Source: an uncultured bacterium (GTDB lineage: Bacteria; Patescibacteriota; JACMRA01). Taken from it: a stretch of DNA of 64,000 nt. Position numbers and translations under genes: made by a program. The notes beneath the pieces were generated by a model. That model saw nothing but the letters and a program-made list of their open reading frames with translations. It had not been told where the DNA came from and searched no databases. Of the stretch, positions 40,735-47,013 are shown in pieces (the stretch's first letter is position 1; each line of letters begins with the position of its first letter). Location: the NCBI GenBank assembly GCA_963784355.1, contig CAWAQU010000012.1, positions 96,001-160,000 of the forward strand, written 5' to 3'.

Positions 40735-42384
40735 TTATTTTTTAGATTTAAAAAAGTTATTAAACTTTGAAAATACATTTGATTGTTCTTTTTCTTTTGA
40801 CTTAGCGATTGCAGACAAGTTTACACCGTTAACTAATTGTCGCATTATAAAGCTATTTTTAGTGTTTTTAAATTTATCTGATGTGGCGTAAGCAAGAAAT
40901 AGATTTACAATCAAGAAATTTTTATCGTTGGGACTATATAGTTTTTCTCCACCAGGATAGTTTGAGCTATCAAGCATTGTAAACAAGTCTTCAAATACTA
41001 TTTCGAATTTTTCCAGACATGAGTCAAAAACTTGGTCATACACATTTTCTATTCCTAGATTTTTTTTCCATGTTTTTTGACCGTAGGTACTCCTATACAC
41101 TAATTTTAACATATCGTCAAGACTGAAGTCTTCGCCTGTTTCATTTACAAAATGGTATGTATTCAACTTCTTCCATACAAAATTTAAGAAATCATTGGAC
41201 ACTTCTTTTAATTCAGCTAGTACATTTTTGTAATTCTGACTATCTGATGTAGATACTACAAAATGTGTTGCTTTTTTAAAAGAGTTTAAAAATTTAACTG
41301 GGGAGTTTTTATTTGATTCTCTGAGGTAAGTTACAAATTCTTGGTATCCCGGCAACTCTTTAATATTGATAGAAAGCTCCTCTTGAGGCATAAATTCTTT
41401 TGGTGAATGCTTAGGTAGATCTTGATTTGTTGTAAATTCTAATGAATTTTGCTCTTGTGGTGCTTTTTGAGACTCTTGAGTTGCTTTAAAATTTGACGCG
41501 TTGTTAGTTTTAATGGTCTTTGTCGCAAAAGAAGCAAATTTTCTGTTTTTATCATTTTCCAATTGCTTTTTGTATTCTTTTTCTTTCTCTAATTGTTCTT
41601 CTTTTAGTCGATTTGCTTTGTCTTGATTCATTTTATTTGTTTCGCGCTCCTCAATAAATTTGCCAAAGATAGGAATAAACTTAACAGATGACTTCATGGA
41701 ATCAGGGGATGATTCAATTATATCACTATGTAACTTAAAAATTTCTCCAAAATCAGAACTGTATTCAGTATTACTATAAAGAATCTCTGGTAATTTTTCA
41801 TTTAAAGCCTGGTTTATAGCTAAATTTGCAATTTTTTTTGAATCAGTAATTTCTTTAGTTTTTGAATACTCATTAATAATTTTTCTAGCCCTTTGCTGAA
41901 TGGATATATCAGATTTCCAAATATTTTTAGTTGTGTTAGCTACCGCTATATCTATTAATTTTAGAATATAAAGTCTATCGGCAAATTTTTCGGTATCTTT
42001 ATTTCTTTTAATATTGATCAGTTCATGTAAAATCTGATTTTGAAATAAATTATGAAATTCTTTGGATTTCAATATTGTAATTTTATTTTCAGCAAATATT
42101 TGAGGTAACGCATCTACCGCGTCTGGATATTTTAACATGATTTCGTGTTTGTGATCTTCAAATACTTGATCTTTAGTATCTTTAAATGACAATATTTTAT
42201 TGCTGCGTTCAGCTGTTTTTATTCTTTTATTGATTTCAACGTTGTATTTGGAATTAGGGCCATCTATTTGATTTACCATCCAACTTTTAGCATTTTCTTC
42301 TAATTTTTTAATAACAATCTTTACAGTTTCTATCTTTATAGCTTCAGGATTATTTTTGTTAGGGTTGTTGGTTTGCTCATTCAT
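40735..42384 (-). CDS. Large hypothetical protein (ORFan)
   Basis: Long K/N/E-rich frame; ATG 42384 (MNEQTNNP). Confidence 0.65.
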   Translation of the reverse strand: MNEQTNNPNKNNPEAIKIETVKIVIKKLEENAKSWMVNQIDGPNSKYNVEINKRIKTAERSNKILSFKDTKDQVFEDHKHEIMLKYPDAVDALPQIFAENKITILKSKEFHNLFQNQILHELINIKRNKDTEKFADRLYILKLIDIAVANTTKNIWKSDISIQQRARKIINEYSKTKEITDSKKIANLAINQALNEKLPEILYSNTEYSSDFGEIFKLHSDIIESSPDSMKSSVKFIPIFGKFIEERETNKMNQDKANRLKEEQLEKEKEYKKQLENDKNRKFASFATKTIKTNNASNFKATQESQKAPQEQNSLEFTTNQDLPKHSPKEFMPQEELSINIKELPGYQEFVTYLRESNKNSPVKFLNSFKKATHFVVSTSDSQNYKNVLAELKEVSNDFLNFVWKKLNTYHFVNETGEDFSLDDMLKLVYRSTYGQKTWKKNLGIENVYDQVFDSCLEKFEIVFEDLFTMLDSSNYPGGEKLYSPNDKNFLIVNLFLAYATSDKFKNTKNSFIMRQLVNGVNLSAIAKSKEKEQSNVFSKFNNFFKSKK

Positions 42385-42522
42385 AAATTGGTATTTTTTA
42401 TTTTTGTTTGAATTTTTTATGCAGGGTATTATTGCATACGTTTTGTTTTTATACAAATACTTAACCAGCAGAGCAGGCTTAAATTGACAAATTTTGTCTA
42501 AACAGGCTAACTTTCAGTAGTA

Positions 42523-42622
42523 ATTAAATAAATTATGCTTTGCCCAGTTTGTAAAATCCCATTGAAATTAACATTAAATAAATTATGCTTTGCCCAGTTT
42601 GTAAAATCCCATTGAAATTAAC
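42523..42622 (+). repeat. Perfect 50-bp tandem duplication covering a gene start
   Basis: 42523-42572 is identical to 42573-42622. Confidence 0.95.
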
Positions 42623-42893
42623 TTTTAGAGAGGATATTGAAATTGACTATTGTGAGCAGTGTAGGGGTGTTTGGTTAGATAGGGGTGAGCTTGATAAATT
42701 AATTGAAAAGTCAAAAAAATACGACAATCATACCTATAGTCAATCAGCTCCTGTACAACCTCAGCAAGTAAATGATCACCATTATGCTGAACATAGAGAC
42801 GATAAAAACCACCACAACCAATATCCACAACATGGCAAACCTCATAAAAAGAAAGATTCTTTTCTAGGGGATGTGTTTGATATCTTTGGTTAA
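42585..42893 (+). CDS. zf-TFIIB zinc-ribbon protein
   Basis: CPVC...IDYCEQCRGVWLDRGELDK, with a KKKDSFLGDVFD tail. Confidence 0.9.
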   Translation: MLCPVCKIPLKLTFREDIEIDYCEQCRGVWLDRGELDKLIEKSKKYDNHTYSQSAPVQPQQVNDHHYAEHRDDKNHHNQYPQHGKPHKKKDSFLGDVFDIFG

Positions 42894-43018
42894 TCAAAGT
42901 GCTTTAAGTAATACTTACCTTTTAAAAAGGAAGACAATGGGCTTAAGATAGTCCGAAATTTTGTTATACCAAGTCACTTGGCACAAATTGATATATTAAA
43001 GCTCTTAGCCAAAGAAAA

Positions 43019-43246
43019 TTAATCCACTTTTTCTACTTCGCTGGACAGTTTCAAAACTTTATCTCCATCCTTTTGCTTGATCAATAGTGCCGGATTTTTT
43101 GAGCTTCCGTGTCTTGTAATTGTGCTGTCTTTAATTTCTTTTTCAATATCTTTTTCGTAAATCTCCATAACCTTTCCCTAAGCAGTTCCATTCCCCCATT
43201 TCCAAGATACTAAATCACCTTTTTGAATTTTATTTTTATTAGTCAT
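43019..43246 (-). pseudogene. DUF2945-like small protein with in-frame TAG
   Basis: KGDLVSWKWGNGTA*GKVMEIY...ITRHGSSKNPALLIKQKDGDKVLKLSSEV; TAG at 43180-43178. Confidence 0.75.
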
Positions 43247-43558
43247 AGTAACTGCAGCTTAAAAAATTTCGATGCTTTTCGTCAATAATTTTTGTGTTTA
43301 ATGTAGTTCTAGAATTACAAAGTATTTTTCAGACATTATCAATTTGATACGCCTACCTTTTTAAACAACTAGATAACATAAGGCTGGCTGATCTGATTAT
43401 TATAGTTATACGAAGTAAATTTGATATTATTTTTACTAATTATGGATAGTTATAAGGCTACATTTGTATTATAAAAGTAGCAATTTAATTATTTCATATA
43501 TCATTCATATTCTAAAAAGTGAATTGACAAAAGGTAATAAACTTTTTATATTCTATAC

Positions 43559-44167
43559 ATGTCTACAAACGATTTTAGATATCTCGAGCAGCGGCTTTTA
43601 GACGAGTTTAGCAAGCCTATGCATATGGGTATTTCTGAGCTTGCTACTGAGCTTGGCATGAAAGACAATACAACACTTTTGTACCATATTCGTAAGCTTG
43701 TGAATGCAGGGTTCTTAATTAAGCTAAAGAAGGGAAGTTATAAAACATTGTTGAGTGTGAATACCGTAAATAGTAACATAATGGAAATACCCTTTTTTGG
43801 TAATGCCAGATGTGGAGATGGGGGAGAGTTACTTGAAGATTATCCTGACTACTATCTTCCAATGAGCACTCAAATGGTAAAACACAACTCTAAAGAATTA
43901 TTTGCCTTGAAAGCTATAGGAGATTCTATGCGACCTGTAATTACTGAGGGTGATACTATTATTGCTGAAAAATATACAAGTAATGTACCTGATAAAAAAA
44001 GTTTTTATGTGGTTACAAATAACCAAGAAGTATTGATAAAAAGAGTTTTATTTTCTAAAGATGGTAGCTTTTTACTTTCTACCAACCCTGAACACTTACC
44101 GATTCCTATTAATAAGGAAAATTTCAACATTGTCGGAAAAGTAGTAGGAGTATATAAAAATTTTTAA
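43559..44167 (+). CDS. lexA: LexA-like repressor (wHTH + S24 peptidase)
   Basis: N-terminal wHTH, GDSM Ser, LIKR Lys, IVGKVVG; putative cleavage site RCG. Confidence 0.8.
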   Translation: MSTNDFRYLEQRLLDEFSKPMHMGISELATELGMKDNTTLLYHIRKLVNAGFLIKLKKGSYKTLLSVNTVNSNIMEIPFFGNARCGDGGELLEDYPDYYLPMSTQMVKHNSKELFALKAIGDSMRPVITEGDTIIAEKYTSNVPDKKSFYVVTNNQEVLIKRVLFSKDGSFLLSTNPEHLPIPINKENFNIVGKVVGVYKNF

Positions 44168-44204
44168 TAAATATTATGATTTACCAGACTAATTAACAAT
44201 ACTT

Positions 44205-44600
44205 ATGCCTACAGACACAAAAAATTTCTCACTATGGGTTAATCAAAAGACTGAATTAGAGCAAAATCTGTCCAGATTAAACTTTAGGGAAAGAGAAGTT
44301 TGGTCTTGTTACTGGGGCTGTAATATTGGATATGAATTAGATGGTAAAAGTGATTTTCTCCGCCCTATTTTAATTATTAAAAAAGTGAGCCCTGAGACTT
44401 TTTTGGCAGTACCTCTTACTAGTAGATTAAAAGATGGCTCCTGGTACCACAAGAGTAATGTTGAGGGTAAAGAAGGAAGGTTTGTATTGCCGCAAATTAG
44501 AATGGTTGATGCAAAGCGGTTAAAATATTTTATTTCCAGGTTAAATGAAACTGACTTTAAAAGTGTCCGGCAAGCCTTTATAAAATTCATTATCTCTTAA
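44205..44600 (+). CDS. PemK/MazF-family endoribonuclease
   Basis: GCNIGYELDGK, RPILII, AVPLTS, QIRMVDAKRL. Confidence 0.88.
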   Translation: MPTDTKNFSLWVNQKTELEQNLSRLNFREREVWSCYWGCNIGYELDGKSDFLRPILIIKKVSPETFLAVPLTSRLKDGSWYHKSNVEGKEGRFVLPQIRMVDAKRLKYFISRLNETDFKSVRQAFIKFIIS

Positions 44601-44620
44601 AGTGTTGACTGAAATTAGGC

Positions 44621-44671
44621 AAAAAAAATACCTCCCGGTTGAGAGGAGGATCGGACTTACGTCAAAACTAC
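44621..44671 (-). ncRNA. Putative ~50-nt sRNA convergent with the PemK/MazF gene
   Basis: TTGACA(44705-44700)-17-TAATAT promoter, GAC-GUAA-GUC hairpin, CCUCC...GGAGG-UAUUUUUUUU terminator. Confidence 0.6.
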
Positions 44672-44900
44672 TTTTAATATTAGATTAAAATAATGAATTT
44701 GTCAAATATAAAATACTGAGCCTAAGGCAATTATATTCAAATAGAAATAAGGCTTAATAAAAAAAGATGGTCTATCAGACCAGTAAAATCAAGAGTATAA
44801 TCTACTGTAGAGCTTGACTACATTTATTTTAAACATCCATATTAGCCTAGATAAAAAACTAAAAAATATATTACCAAAATAATACATAACACAAAAATTT

Positions 44901-46973
44901 ATGATTACAAACTTTTTTAAAACTATTTTAACAGCTGCCCTAATTTTATTAATAGGAGTAGGCCTGTTTCCAGTTCAGGCAAAAGCTATGAGTGCTAACT
45001 GGCAAAAAGGAATCAGTATATATCCAGCTAACCAAACCGTTTATGGTAGTAGTGATTTTAGACAATCTCTTTCAAACTACGCACAAACTGGAGGCAATTT
45101 TTTCAATTTTGTGGTACCATACTATCAGGCTAACAAGTACTCAAGCGATTTTTACCCTGGAAATAGTACACCTACTGATGAATCTTTGATTTCAGGTATC
45201 AATTATGCGAAAAGTTTGGGTTTGCAAACTGGTATTAAAATATTTGCAGAGATAAGCAATGGTGACTGGAGAGCAGCGATAGAAGCAAGTAATAACCTGG
45301 CCTGGTTTAGCAATTATGGTAAAATTGTTACAAAATATGGCCAGCTGGGTCAGCAATATGGGGTCGAGATAATAACTATCGGCACAGAAATGATAGGTAT
45401 GTCAATTCCCTCGAAAAATAGTAACAATACCCAGGGCTGGCTTGATATTATTGCAAATACCAGAAAAGTTTATTCGGGTAAATTAACTTATGGCGCTACA
45501 CACCTTGGTGGGCAGGATGATGAAAAAAATCTGATTCAGTTTTGGCCACAATTGGATTACATAGGTATTACAGCCTATTTTCAGCTAGCGGATAGTGATA
45601 TAGGAAATCCGGGGGTAGATTATTTCAAAAACGTTTGGAATACAATAAACAATGAGCAAATAAAACCGCTCTACACTAAGTACAATAAGCCCATTATATT
45701 TGCTGAGGTGGGTTACGAAAGTATTAACGCTAGCTATATTAATCCAGGGGATTATACAAGAGATGGTCCGGTAAATACTGAACTTCAAGCCACACTATAT
45801 GAGGCCCTATTTTCATATTTTAGTAATTACGATTATATTGCGGGTATACATTTATGGGAGTGGAATAGTAATCCTAACACTGGAGGTATAGGCAATAAAG
45901 ATTTTACCCCTCAAAATAAGCCAGCTCAAAAAGTAATGGAATCTTGGTTTAAATTTGGATCAAGTCCTACAAAATTAAGCTTTCAATCAACCACAACAGT
46001 ACCAACTACAACCCCAACTCTAAATCAACCTGTACAAGTAAATAATGTAATCAAAAATACATCAACCTCAGCAGGATCATCTTTAGTAGATATTGAAATA
46101 TACAACCAACAAGGACAAAAAGTATTTCAACAATACTATGAAAATCAAGGCTTTACAGCAAATGAATCAAAAAACTACAACGTAACCTACACTCCAACAA
46201 CTACAGGTACATATACAGTTAAAGTAGGAGTATTTGGAAGTGGTTGGAATCCTAATTACATCTGGGATGATAAGGCTGTTGAGTTTAATGTAACTAATCA
46301 AATTGTAGCTCCTCTGAAATTCACATCAACCACAACAGTACCAACTACAACCCCAACTCTAAATCAACCTGTACAAGTAAATAATGTAATCAAAAATACA
46401 TCAACCTCAGCAGGATCATCTTTAGTAGATATTGAAATATACAACCAACAAGGACAAAAAGTATTTCAACAATACTATGAAAATCAAGGCTTTACAGCAA
46501 ATGAATCAAAAAACTACAACGTAACCTACACTCCAACAACTACAGGTACATATACAGTTAAAGTAGGAGTATTTGGAAGTGGTTGGAATCCTAATTACAT
46601 CTGGGATGATAAGGCTGTTGAGTTTAATGTAACTAATCAAATTGTAGCTCCTCTGAAATTCACATCAACCACAACAGTACCAACTACAACCCCAACTCTA
46701 AATCAACCTGTACAAGTAAATAATGTAATCAAAAATACATCAACCTCAGCAGGATCATCTTTAGTAGATATTGAAATATACAACCAACAAGGACAAAAAG
46801 TATTTCAACAATACTATGAAAATCAAGGCTTTACAGCAAATGAATCAAAAAACTACAACGTAACCTACACTCCAACAACTACAGGTACATATACAGTTAA
46901 AGTAGGAGTATTTGGAAGTGGTTGGAATCCTAATTACATCTGGGATGATAAGGCTGTTGAGTTTAGAATATAA
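44901..46973 (+). CDS. Secreted GH113-like glycoside hydrolase with three Ig-like repeats
   Basis: Signal peptide AKA, WRAAI, IGTEM and FAEVGYES Glu motifs, LDYIGITAYF, FTPQNKPA. Confidence 0.8.
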   Translation: MITNFFKTILTAALILLIGVGLFPVQAKAMSANWQKGISIYPANQTVYGSSDFRQSLSNYAQTGGNFFNFVVPYYQANKYSSDFYPGNSTPTDESLISGINYAKSLGLQTGIKIFAEISNGDWRAAIEASNNLAWFSNYGKIVTKYGQLGQQYGVEIITIGTEMIGMSIPSKNSNNTQGWLDIIANTRKVYSGKLTYGATHLGGQDDEKNLIQFWPQLDYIGITAYFQLADSDIGNPGVDYFKNVWNTINNEQIKPLYTKYNKPIIFAEVGYESINASYINPGDYTRDGPVNTELQATLYEALFSYFSNYDYIAGIHLWEWNSNPNTGGIGNKDFTPQNKPAQKVMESWFKFGSSPTKLSFQSTTTVPTTTPTLNQPVQVNNVIKNTSTSAGSSLVDIEIYNQQGQKVFQQYYENQGFTANESKNYNVTYTPTTTGTYTVKVGVFGSGWNPNYIWDDKAVEFNVTNQIVAPLKFTSTTTVPTTTPTLNQPVQVNNVIKNTSTSAGSSLVDIEIYNQQGQKVFQQYYENQGFTANESKNYNVTYTPTTTGTYTVKVGVFGSGWNPNYIWDDKAVEFNVTNQIVAPLKFTSTTTVPTTTPTLNQPVQVNNVIKNTSTSAGSSLVDIEIYNQQGQKVFQQYYENQGFTANESKNYNVTYTPTTTGTYTVKVGVFGSGWNPNYIWDDKAVEFRI
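45986..46965 (+). repeat. 339-bp tandem repeat, about 2.9 copies that read as identical
   Basis: Units begin at 45986, 46325 and 46664; each encodes a 113-aa beta-rich module. Confidence 0.95.
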
Positions 46974-47013
46974 GGAATCCCAAATAGTAAAAAAACTTAA
47001 TAAGAAAAATACT

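Follow-up and report, generated by a model that had tools for sequence, protein, structure and literature searches.

A two-hairpin small RNA convergent to an orphan MazF/PemK gene of Patescibacteria: a candidate toxin/RNA-antitoxin module

Background

MazF is the textbook toxin of type II toxin-antitoxin systems, which are defined by a protein antitoxin, and a MazF/PemK gene that lies without such a partner raises the question of what might hold its product in check. We address this question for one such gene in a 64,000-nt stretch of DNA (hereafter the window: positions 96,001 to 160,000 of contig CAWAQU010000012.1, assembly GCA_963784355.1) from an uncultured bacterium of the patescibacterial lineage JACMRA01, whose genome comprises 1.14 Mb in 13 contigs with a G+C content of about 33%. 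An initial annotation made from the DNA alone had pointed out that the gene is not flanked by a small protein antitoxin, and that the opposite strand carries, from about 20 nt past the stop codon, a compact transcription unit for a small RNA (sRNA) with a TTGACA-17-TAATAT promoter, a GAC-GUAA-GUC hairpin and a terminator. The PemK gene and each of these elements are indeed found in these places (Table 1).

The comparative evidence presented below supports the further suggestion of a new architecture, in which an orphan MazF gene is coupled to a convergent sRNA of its own, and a large subfamily of MazF appears to be partnered with such an sRNA instead of a protein. That the two genes form a real and functionally coupled module seems to us nearly certain, and that the sRNA restrains the toxin is probable; that it does so by cis-antisense pairing is a tentative proposal. 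The composite interpretation that we prefer on the strength of sequence comparison, namely a single two-gene toxin/RNA-antitoxin module with cis-antisense action as its most likely route, has in our estimation about an even chance of being correct.

A convergent RNA unit follows the toxin gene across homologous loci

Homologous loci were gathered using six closer sequences, and the DNA following the stop codons of the homologs displays a recurrent layout. Behind a short tail comes a GC-rich hairpin, which a short linker joins to a second, small hairpin; an AT-rich stretch comes next, and then a sigma-70-type promoter in reverse complement. A crude pattern for this promoter (TTGAC[AT]-like, a spacer of 16–19 nt and TAnnnT, on the opposite strand and 65–120 nt past the stop codon) is present in 55 of the 90 homologous loci, with more recognizable by eye, and in all but a few cases the RNA predicted from it folds into two hairpins behind a leader of some 10 nt. 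The near-consensus -35 element, often combined with an extended -10, is conserved across the units, and the end of the predicted sRNA lies 2–30 nt from the toxin stop codon in most loci. No plus-strand terminator was found between the toxin stop codon and the sRNA gene, either in the window or in the downstream sequences of the homologs.

As MAFFT alignments of all units mis-align the terminator-like hairpin (hairpin B), we built covariance models from two narrow seed sets of equal geometry. The first model, R1, used five sequences of the common GGC-UUCG-GCC type, and the second, R2, used nine, of which eight came from the bacterial family of the window and one from a further locus (L059), with the window itself deliberately excluded. 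At E ≤ 1 in 97 sources R1 gave 51 matches and R2 gave 47. Together they placed 78 units convergent to a toxin gene and within -60 to +90 nt of its stop codon, in 75 of the 97 sources, with only 11 matches elsewhere. Among the 22 loci missed by the models, 17 showed the promoter and two hairpins on visual inspection, three were ambiguous, one lay at a contig end and one (L015) was without the unit; models and inspection taken together, it is kept in about 92 of 96 assessable loci. The presence of a convergent promoter, tetraloop hairpin and terminator among homologs had been set beforehand as a test of the initial annotation, and its outcome is strongly positive. The R2 model also recovered the unit of the window at 44623-44673 on the minus strand (23.5 bits, E = 3.9e-5) as the best match in the entire 64 kb. 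No match to Rfam 15 was obtained at the unit, at E ≤ 10 over 42000-47000 of the window or at E ≤ 5 in 13 homologous loci.

Structure, strand and conserved sequence of the RNA

Both helices of the unit covary. Standard base pairs occupy 99.5% of the paired cells in the R1 set and 93.9% in the R2 set, as against 48–71% and 42–60% in slid controls, and changes on both sides of a pair were seen for 9 of 10 and 11 of 11 pairs respectively, with none of 500 shuffles reaching the covariation score; both alignments were fitted to the models and hence lean towards structure. In the helix of the smaller hairpin (hairpin A) all four pairs change on both sides, and the helix switches among GGC/GCC, GAC/GUC, UCC/GGA and GGG/CCC. 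The loops furnish evidence independent of any alignment: across both hairpins of 85 units, there are 100 loops of the UUCG or GNRA type and a single one of the reverse-complement types. This bias indicates that the RNA is read on the strand convergent to the toxin gene.

Sequence conservation is unevenly distributed over the unit, with the promoter, the 5' single strand and hairpin A being kept in sequence and hairpin B in structure only. The 5' strand is ACAAAU-like in most units, and GUAAUUU or GUAGUUUU in the bacterial family of the window. Over 30 loci, words of the leader show a weak tendency to recur in the 3' tail (mean longest shared word of 4.2 versus 3.7). In three loci (L046, L072 and L076) a 7-nt word of the leader recurs just after hairpin B, and it overlaps the toxin stop codon in the latter two; such repeats could be processing sites or the footprints of insertion.

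Genome-wide specificity of the unit

The unit is tightly linked to the toxin family on the scale of whole genomes. In 26 such genomes, 19 of the 23 places with a member of the toxin family adjoin an R2 match at E ≤ 1e-3, and conversely 15 of the 20 matches scoring at least 30 bits abut a toxin gene. When 151 genomes from across the phylum were searched with R1, a single match was recovered at E ≤ 1e-4; a distance of 19 nt separates it from the only member of the toxin family in that genome, to which it is convergent. The source genome of the window contains four R2 matches at E ≤ 1e-3. Two of these are beside its two toxin paralogs, the second of which, on contig C3 and next to an integrase gene, has a unit scoring 37 bits. 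No second copy of the window's unit was detected in its own genome by blastn, the related copies being apparent only through the covariance model. The second paralog (L021:9237-9677) and its own convergent sRNA are part of an accessory island (C3:5000-17000, equivalent to L021). Its other genes include three that, as read from their translations, are UmuD-like (S24 peptidase), Y-family polymerase-like and SRAP-like, along with genes for a nuclease-like secreted protein and a tyrosine recombinase.

Five of the matches of at least 30 bits lie away from the toxin family, and a sixth, weaker match (L107) was compared along with them. Three of the six have a full promoter and are placed by protein-coding genes of other kinds: one (L102:2001-2050) is convergent to an operon with DUF1828/1829 and DUF6978 genes, one (L104:1252-1301) is near and convergent to a DUF3800 gene, and one (L107:2001-2050, 26.7 bits) is 6 nt from the stop codon of a gene for a DUF1877-like protein of 165 residues. 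Of the others, one is degenerate (L105) and one is without a clear partner (L103, G003:C52). The RNA module may therefore serve several gene families, and its convergence upon unrelated accessory genes would fit an antisense mechanism that is agnostic to the partner. The strongest R2 match of the source genome itself (47.1 bits; C10:32561-32610, plus strand, equivalent to L106:2001-2050) has neither a toxin gene nor a recognizable promoter; it follows a ParA-like gene and an open reading frame (ORF) of 77 codons, faces a Methyltransf_33-like gene of 393 codons, and may be an orphan or co-opted sRNA. On contig C9, the fourth match of this genome (27 bits) resembles an ordinary terminator behind a gene encoding 492 residues.

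These exceptional copies bear on an explanation of the unit as an insulator. In this view the unit does not control the toxin but moves along with accessory genes as a cassette of convergent promoter and terminator, which would block read-through out of the inserted gene by collision of polymerases or supply 3'-end structures for transcripts of either strand. The toxin genes sit between housekeeping genes of the same strand with short gaps, making read-through a real issue, the unit accompanies other accessory genes too, the promoterless C10 copy is placed where an operon terminator would be, and the C9 match has the look of a plain terminator. An insulator, however, has no need of a conserved hairpin A and 5' strand, nor does it account for the conservation of the promoter elements or for the nearly exclusive link to one toxin family. 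Furthermore, a toxic RNase without an antitoxin would presumably be hard to keep at up to eight places per genome. We therefore view this explanation as unlikely.

The same comparisons dispose of chance. Judged alone, the unit in the window is unremarkable and not beyond what chance could produce: between 43000 and 45200 there are 14 promoter-like sites where shuffled sequences have 10.0 +/- 2.6, and 3 terminator-like sites where they have 0.9 +/- 1.0, and the predicted 53-nt RNA folds no better than its shuffles (z = -0.59). An AT-rich intergenic stretch might look much the same if it happened to contain hexamers resembling a promoter, along with a terminator left behind by a minus-strand gene since lost. 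The significance of the unit comes from its comparison with other loci, and the conservation, covariation and genome-wide specificity described above refute an accidental origin, to which we assign a negligible probability.

The toxin is a MazF protein without a conserved protein partner

The sole Pfam match of the toxin is to PemK_toxin (PF02452; 32.3 bits against a cut-off of 23.1). A profile of 78 family members retrieved EndoA/YdcE of Bacillus subtilis (E = 3.1e-7), MazF of Staphylococcus aureus and MoxT of Bacillus anthracis, with e-values of about 3e-7 to 1e-6. An AlphaFold (AF2) model of the protein, with a mean pLDDT confidence score of 89.2, found S. aureus MazF, a Bacillus cereus mRNA interferase, MoxT and YdcE as its best Foldseek matches (TMq 0.63–0.67; TM 0.63–0.74 for S. 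aureus MazF). The matches listed in the PDB profile and Foldseek searches comprise MazF, Kid and CcdB, with weak eS17 matches from the profile, and ToxN is absent among them; PADLOC likewise gave no match. The profile and the modelled structure identify the toxin as a MazF proper within the MazF/Kid/CcdB-like beta-barrel fold, and the analogy to ToxN, the RNA-inhibited toxin invoked in the initial annotation, is a weak one, the nearest relatives being EndoA and S. aureus MazF.

In the HMM (hidden Markov model) alignment, R53-P54 and T72 of the toxin correspond to the RP and IT of B. subtilis EndoA, which we take to contain the catalytic residues R25 and T48 of that enzyme. P54 is invariant and R53 nearly invariant among the 78 family sequences, and judging from these residues and the fold the toxin is probably an active MazF nuclease. 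A further feature that typifies this family is an N-terminal extension with a predicted helix at residues 8-20, in and near which W11 and K15 are invariant and K6 and F8 nearly so. The family is sizeable: a search of 1.84 billion representatives with the 78-member profile yielded 3713 clusters at E ≤ 0.001, a number that falls to 2122 at 1e-10 and to 678 at 1e-30. Relatives of the toxin are overwhelmingly from Patescibacteria, with some from Campylobacterota. A search of 61 related genomes located the protein in 19 of them, and one genome can contain as many as eight places that match the query.

To characterize the neighbourhood, ORFs were called in 90 distinct homologous loci and the two neighbours on each side, of 50 codons or more, were clustered. 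No protein family occurs in more than four loci, and at this depth neither a MazE/PemI-like gene adjoining the toxin nor, by the same token, the adjacent co-transcribed protein antitoxin gene of type II MazEF/PemIK was found. Many toxin genes are inserted between housekeeping genes of the same strand, with flanking gaps often shorter than 100 nt, which leaves no room for another gene. With no recurrent neighbour family, the designation 'orphan', made for the gene in the window, holds for the toxin family as a whole. Tandem toxin paralogs were seen in three loci. In a Sulfurovum contig (L072:1810-3263) three PemK paralogs stand in tandem, and the unit follows the first (R1 match) and the second (promoter pattern and visual inspection).

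The gene directly upstream of the toxin in the window merits consideration as a surrogate antitoxin. It had been described as a full LexA-like gene, and it does code for a protein with a helix-turn-helix (HTH) domain and an S24 peptidase (Pfam Peptidase_S24, 76.9 bits; the HTH_20 match is weak), but its score of 59.1 bits on the NCBIfam LexA model (TIGR00498) falls well under the equivalog cut-off of 110.95. Since the gap to the toxin gene is only 37 nt and no terminator is predicted between the two, they are probably co-transcribed in the window, and the promoter-like sequence at 43524..43552 probably drives the toxin gene as well. The -10 element of this promoter stops 7 nt short of the LexA-like ATG, and the mRNA may be leaderless; the toxin ATG is likewise without a visible Shine-Dalgarno-like sequence upstream. 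A search for a palindromic operator shared by the regions upstream of LexA-like genes turned up nothing convincing. In the single same-genus genome compared (G001), a protein search found no close ortholog of the LexA-like gene, with only distant S24 matches (the best 27% identical), and a DNA search for synteny was without a match.

Restraint at the level of protein, either by this LexA/CI-like repressor or in cis by the toxin's own N-terminal helix, with the sRNA in a secondary role, could draw on several observations. A LexA-like gene is also directly upstream of the toxin in L017 and divergent from it in L015, the only locus without the sRNA unit, and the helix is conserved with its invariant W11 and K15. 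Precedents are available in MazF-mx of Myxococcus with MrpC, and in the cis-antitoxin of EzeT, both described in PMC4803016. Against this, a LexA-like neighbour is present in just 3 of the 90 loci, all within the bacterial family of the window, nothing among our results supports a placement of the helix in the active groove, and the retention of the sRNA unit in nearly all assessable loci would be left unexplained. We accordingly hold protein-level restraint to be quite improbable.

Plasmid and prophage carriers

The module is also found on mobile elements of cultured bacteria. On a 5.8-kb plasmid of Helicobacter suis the toxin gene overlaps the stop codon of the relaxase gene, and the convergent RNA has a fold z of -3.2; a Nitratiruptor plasmid carries a family toxin and a convergent RNA with a fold z of -4.5; and in the Campylobacter jejuni prophage CJIE4 the toxin gene is lodged between the terminase and portal genes, with an RNA fold z of -4.2. 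An extended -10 faces the toxin in all three copies, of which only that of Nitratiruptor is matched by a model, and weakly so (13.4 bits). Such settings are typical of addiction or defence modules. These cultured carriers would offer an easy experimental handle on the module, and the CJIE4 transcript may already be listed in the transcription start site tables of PMC3656092, a differential RNA-seq study that includes the CJIE4 carrier C. jejuni RM1221. In Patescibacteria, whose genomes are tiny and for which few regulators are known, a recurrent mobile toxin/sRNA pair is of interest with respect to phage defence and genome stability.

How the RNA might restrain the toxin

We propose that a dedicated, strongly promoted and structured sRNA of about 45–55 nt, with its predicted 3' end abutting the toxin stop codon, acts as an RNA antitoxin or negative regulator, most likely by a route akin to that of type I systems. 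The toxin transcript, being without a terminator of its own, would run through the sRNA gene and thereby acquire a 3' end perfectly complementary to an abundant sRNA. The resulting duplex, starting at the stop codon, could be cut by RNase III, a gene for which is encoded in the source genome, and the toxin cistron would then be broken down or lack a proper end. In the window, the sRNA would in this manner hold the toxin down whenever the operon of the LexA-like and toxin genes is on. The sRNA gene lies wholly beyond the toxin stop codon and is complementary to the toxin mRNA only upon read-through. The unit had been characterized as downstream, convergent and non-overlapping; the first two terms are apt, but the third is doubtful, because no plus-strand terminator separates the stop codon from the sRNA gene, so that the toxin transcript probably extends through the latter and would be complementary to the sRNA. 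The antisense route is favoured by the tight spacing to the stop codon, the lack of an intervening plus-strand terminator, the unrelated neighbours that the unit serves and the presence of RNase III.

Several observations weigh against antisense pairing as the route. An RNA that acts purely in cis by antisense pairing has no need of a conserved sequence, yet both the 5' strand and hairpin A are kept among toxins that share only 35–45% identity, with hairpin A reading GGC-UUCG-GCC in 40 of 85 units. Closed UUCG and GNRA loops make poor kissing loops, and the additional sRNA copies that occur as orphans or in tandem (C10, L004, L011, L020, L027, L053 and G015:C60) would have no use in cis. Hairpin B is followed by a U-run in only 41 of 78 units, that of the window included, and the RNA of the window, as noted above, does not outfold its shuffles. 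Complementarity of the sRNA to the ribosome-binding region of its toxin is not cognate-specific, the energies over 50 pairs being -15.3 versus -15.5 kcal/mol (p = 0.56). Finally, the type I toxins known to us are small membrane peptides and not RNases of 131 residues.

The main rival to antisense pairing is an interaction of the RNA with the nuclease itself, which is favoured by the conservation seen in the 5' strand and hairpin A, by the closed tetraloops and by the orphan copies. The sRNA would in that case bind the MazF-family protein and block it in the fashion of type III antitoxins: the 5' strand might enter the groove that binds RNA and act there as a pseudo-substrate, or as a decoy that is cleaved slowly, while hairpin A would be the anchor and hairpin B no more than a terminator or stabilizer. 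The toxin does belong to a group of RNA-binding endoribonucleases, and the pattern of conservation, in sequence for the 5' strand and hairpin A and in structure only for hairpin B, is as would be expected. The 5' strand is often UACAU- or ACAAAU-like (L020, L021, L029, L050, L054 and L057), thus resembling UACAU, the site cleaved by the MazF enzymes of B. subtilis and S. aureus, which are the closest solved relatives of the toxin. Orphan and tandem copies would suit an inhibitor acting in trans, and the loops are of compact, very stable types rather than kissing loops. On the other hand, sRNAs of this type, leader and hairpin A included, stand beside unrelated proteins, the GUAAUUU or GUAGUUUU leader of the f1 family is unlike the ACA type, and an inhibitor acting in trans has no need of so tight a spacing to the stop codon. 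The single-copy, downstream and convergent unit is moreover unlike every type III locus described in PMC3401426 and PMC8860590, or otherwise known to us. Direct binding is hence a possibility that we rate well short of probable, in its general form as well as in the detailed version with a decoy strand. With the same reserve one might imagine that a MazF lineage exchanged its protein antitoxin for a single, non-repetitive, separately transcribed two-hairpin sRNA which binds the nuclease as a pseudo-substrate by way of the conserved 5' strand and the UUCG hairpin; if direct binding were true, this would be a type of RNA-protein toxin-antitoxin system that arose independently of ToxIN and with a different gene architecture.

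Relationship to known toxin-antitoxin systems

The type I loci txpA/RatA, bsrG/SR4 and fst/RNAII of par have convergent antisense RNAs that overlap the 3' end of the toxin transcript. The module described here resembles these loci in having a separately promoted small RNA that converges on the 3' end of the toxin gene, in lacking a protein antitoxin, in its multi-copy, mobile distribution on plasmids and prophages, and in the pairing with the toxin transcript that we propose. It differs in that the toxin is a soluble MazF endoribonuclease of 131 residues and not a membrane peptide of under 60, and in that the sRNA is placed wholly past the stop codon, is conserved in sequence and has closed tetraloops, the overlap of transcripts being our own surmise. 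The type I class in general is outlined in PMC6563280 and PMC2887945.

Comparison with type III and type II systems reveals a similar mixture. Type III toxins have a fold of the wider Kid/MazF-like kind. With ToxIN, CptIN and TenpIN, as presented in PMC3401426 and PMC8860590, the module shares an endoribonuclease toxin and a structured non-coding RNA without a protein antitoxin. Unlike their RNA, which is a tandem repeat array, upstream, co-directional and separated from the toxin by a terminator, the RNA here occurs as one copy past the toxin gene, to which it is convergent, and is served by a promoter of its own; by Pfam, PADLOC and the matches listed the toxin falls outside the ToxN/AbiQ, CptN and TenpN families. 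With type II MazEF/PemIK it has in common the toxin family and fold, including the RP and T residues, and departs from them in the family-specific N-terminal helix and in having an sRNA gene where the partner would be expected. The module is thus related to both type I and type III systems and a member of neither, at least one defining feature of each being absent upon examination.

Three other systems offer partial parallels. SymR of Escherichia coli overlaps the 5' end of its mRNA. In the SymE/SymR pair a non-peptide toxin linked to RNA cleavage is restrained by a cis-encoded antisense RNA and controlled by a LexA-type repressor, according to PMC1891008. The window similarly has a LexA-like gene directly upstream, a link that is local, as seen from the neighbour counts above, and the MazF fold of the toxin contrasts with the MazE/AbrB fold of SymE. 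A solitary MazF-mx lacks MazE and is neutralized by the protein MrpC (PMC4803016), and the antisense RNA aMEF stimulates a normal type II mazEF operon (PMC8749433). These are precedents for a MazF without MazE and for an antisense RNA at a mazF locus respectively, but neither has a dedicated convergent two-hairpin sRNA. No account of a MazF/PemK gene coupled to a convergent sRNA of its own emerged from a literature search that covered few subscription journals. If our reading is true, the fold of the toxin and the nature of the antitoxin would be exchangeable in evolution, many 'orphan' MazF annotations in uncultured small-celled bacteria would be explained, and an unlisted, well-covarying RNA motif would be added to the catalogue.

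Features of the window and its surroundings

The features of the locus are collected in Table 1. The start of the sRNA, at about 44671, is deduced from the position of the -10 element. The U-run following hairpin B consists of eight residues (44628-44621) and brings the 3' end of the sRNA to 20 nt from the toxin stop codon. The inverted repeat that had been noted as bracketing the unit is exact, with arms of 11 bp, yet it is a local peculiarity and not a feature of the module: an arm of at least 9 nt occurs in only 2 of 55 loci, and the mean length of 6.2 compares with 6.0 in shuffles. The plus-strand region inside the repeat has a fold z of -0.16.

Table 1. Positions of the predicted features around the toxin gene (numbering of the window)
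Feature	Position	Strand	Basis	Remarks
Promoter-like TTGACA-17-TATATT	43524..43552	+	promoter scan	11/12 consensus; ahead of LexA-like gene
LexA/CI-like repressor gene (HTH + peptidase S24, 202 aa)	43559..44167	+	Pfam/NCBIfam	ends 37 nt before toxin gene
MazF/PemK-family endoribonuclease gene (131 aa)	44205..44600	+	ORF, Pfam, profile, structure model	stop codon 44598-44600
Inverted repeat, 11 bp, exact	44583..44593 (left arm); 44690-44700 (right arm)			left arm at end of toxin ORF; right arm in sRNA promoter spacer
Predicted sRNA, ~50 nt	44621..44671	-		short single-stranded 5' end; hairpins A and B separated by a 4-nt linker; U8
Hairpin B, CCUCC(U)...(G)GGAGG	44631..44649	-		5-6 bp GC-rich stem, 7-nt loop; intrinsic-terminator-like
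Hairpin A, GAC-GUAA-GUC	44654..44663	-		3 bp + GNRA loop; counterpart of GGC-UUCG-GCC in most family members
sRNA promoter	44677..44705	-	promoter scan	-35 TTGACA 44705-44700, 17-nt spacer, -10 TAATAT 44682-44677; 10/12 consensus

A second terminator-like hairpin with a T-run (44782-44768, minus strand) is situated between the two plus-strand genes, in the region 44760-44887, and is preceded by a hydrophobic ORF of 32 codons (44789-44887) and a weak promoter-like TATACT. It is matched by neither R1 nor R2 at E ≤ 1, and might be a decayed second sRNA unit, tandem copies being seen in L004, L011 and L020, or a small peptide gene. In another locus, an Andersenbacteria contig, the Rfam LOOT RNA (L099:633-750, minus strand; 74.3 bits against a gathering threshold of 46.4) and four tRNA genes are found near the PemK gene and sRNA module.

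The next plus-strand gene of the window, 300 nt after the toxin gene, encodes a GH113 glycoside hydrolase (44901-46973). It ends in three identical tandem repeats of about 339 bp, which give rise to identical small ORFs at 46093, 46432 and 46771 and to identical spurious Rfam matches at 46020, 46359 and 46698. These repeats encode filamin/Ig-like domains.

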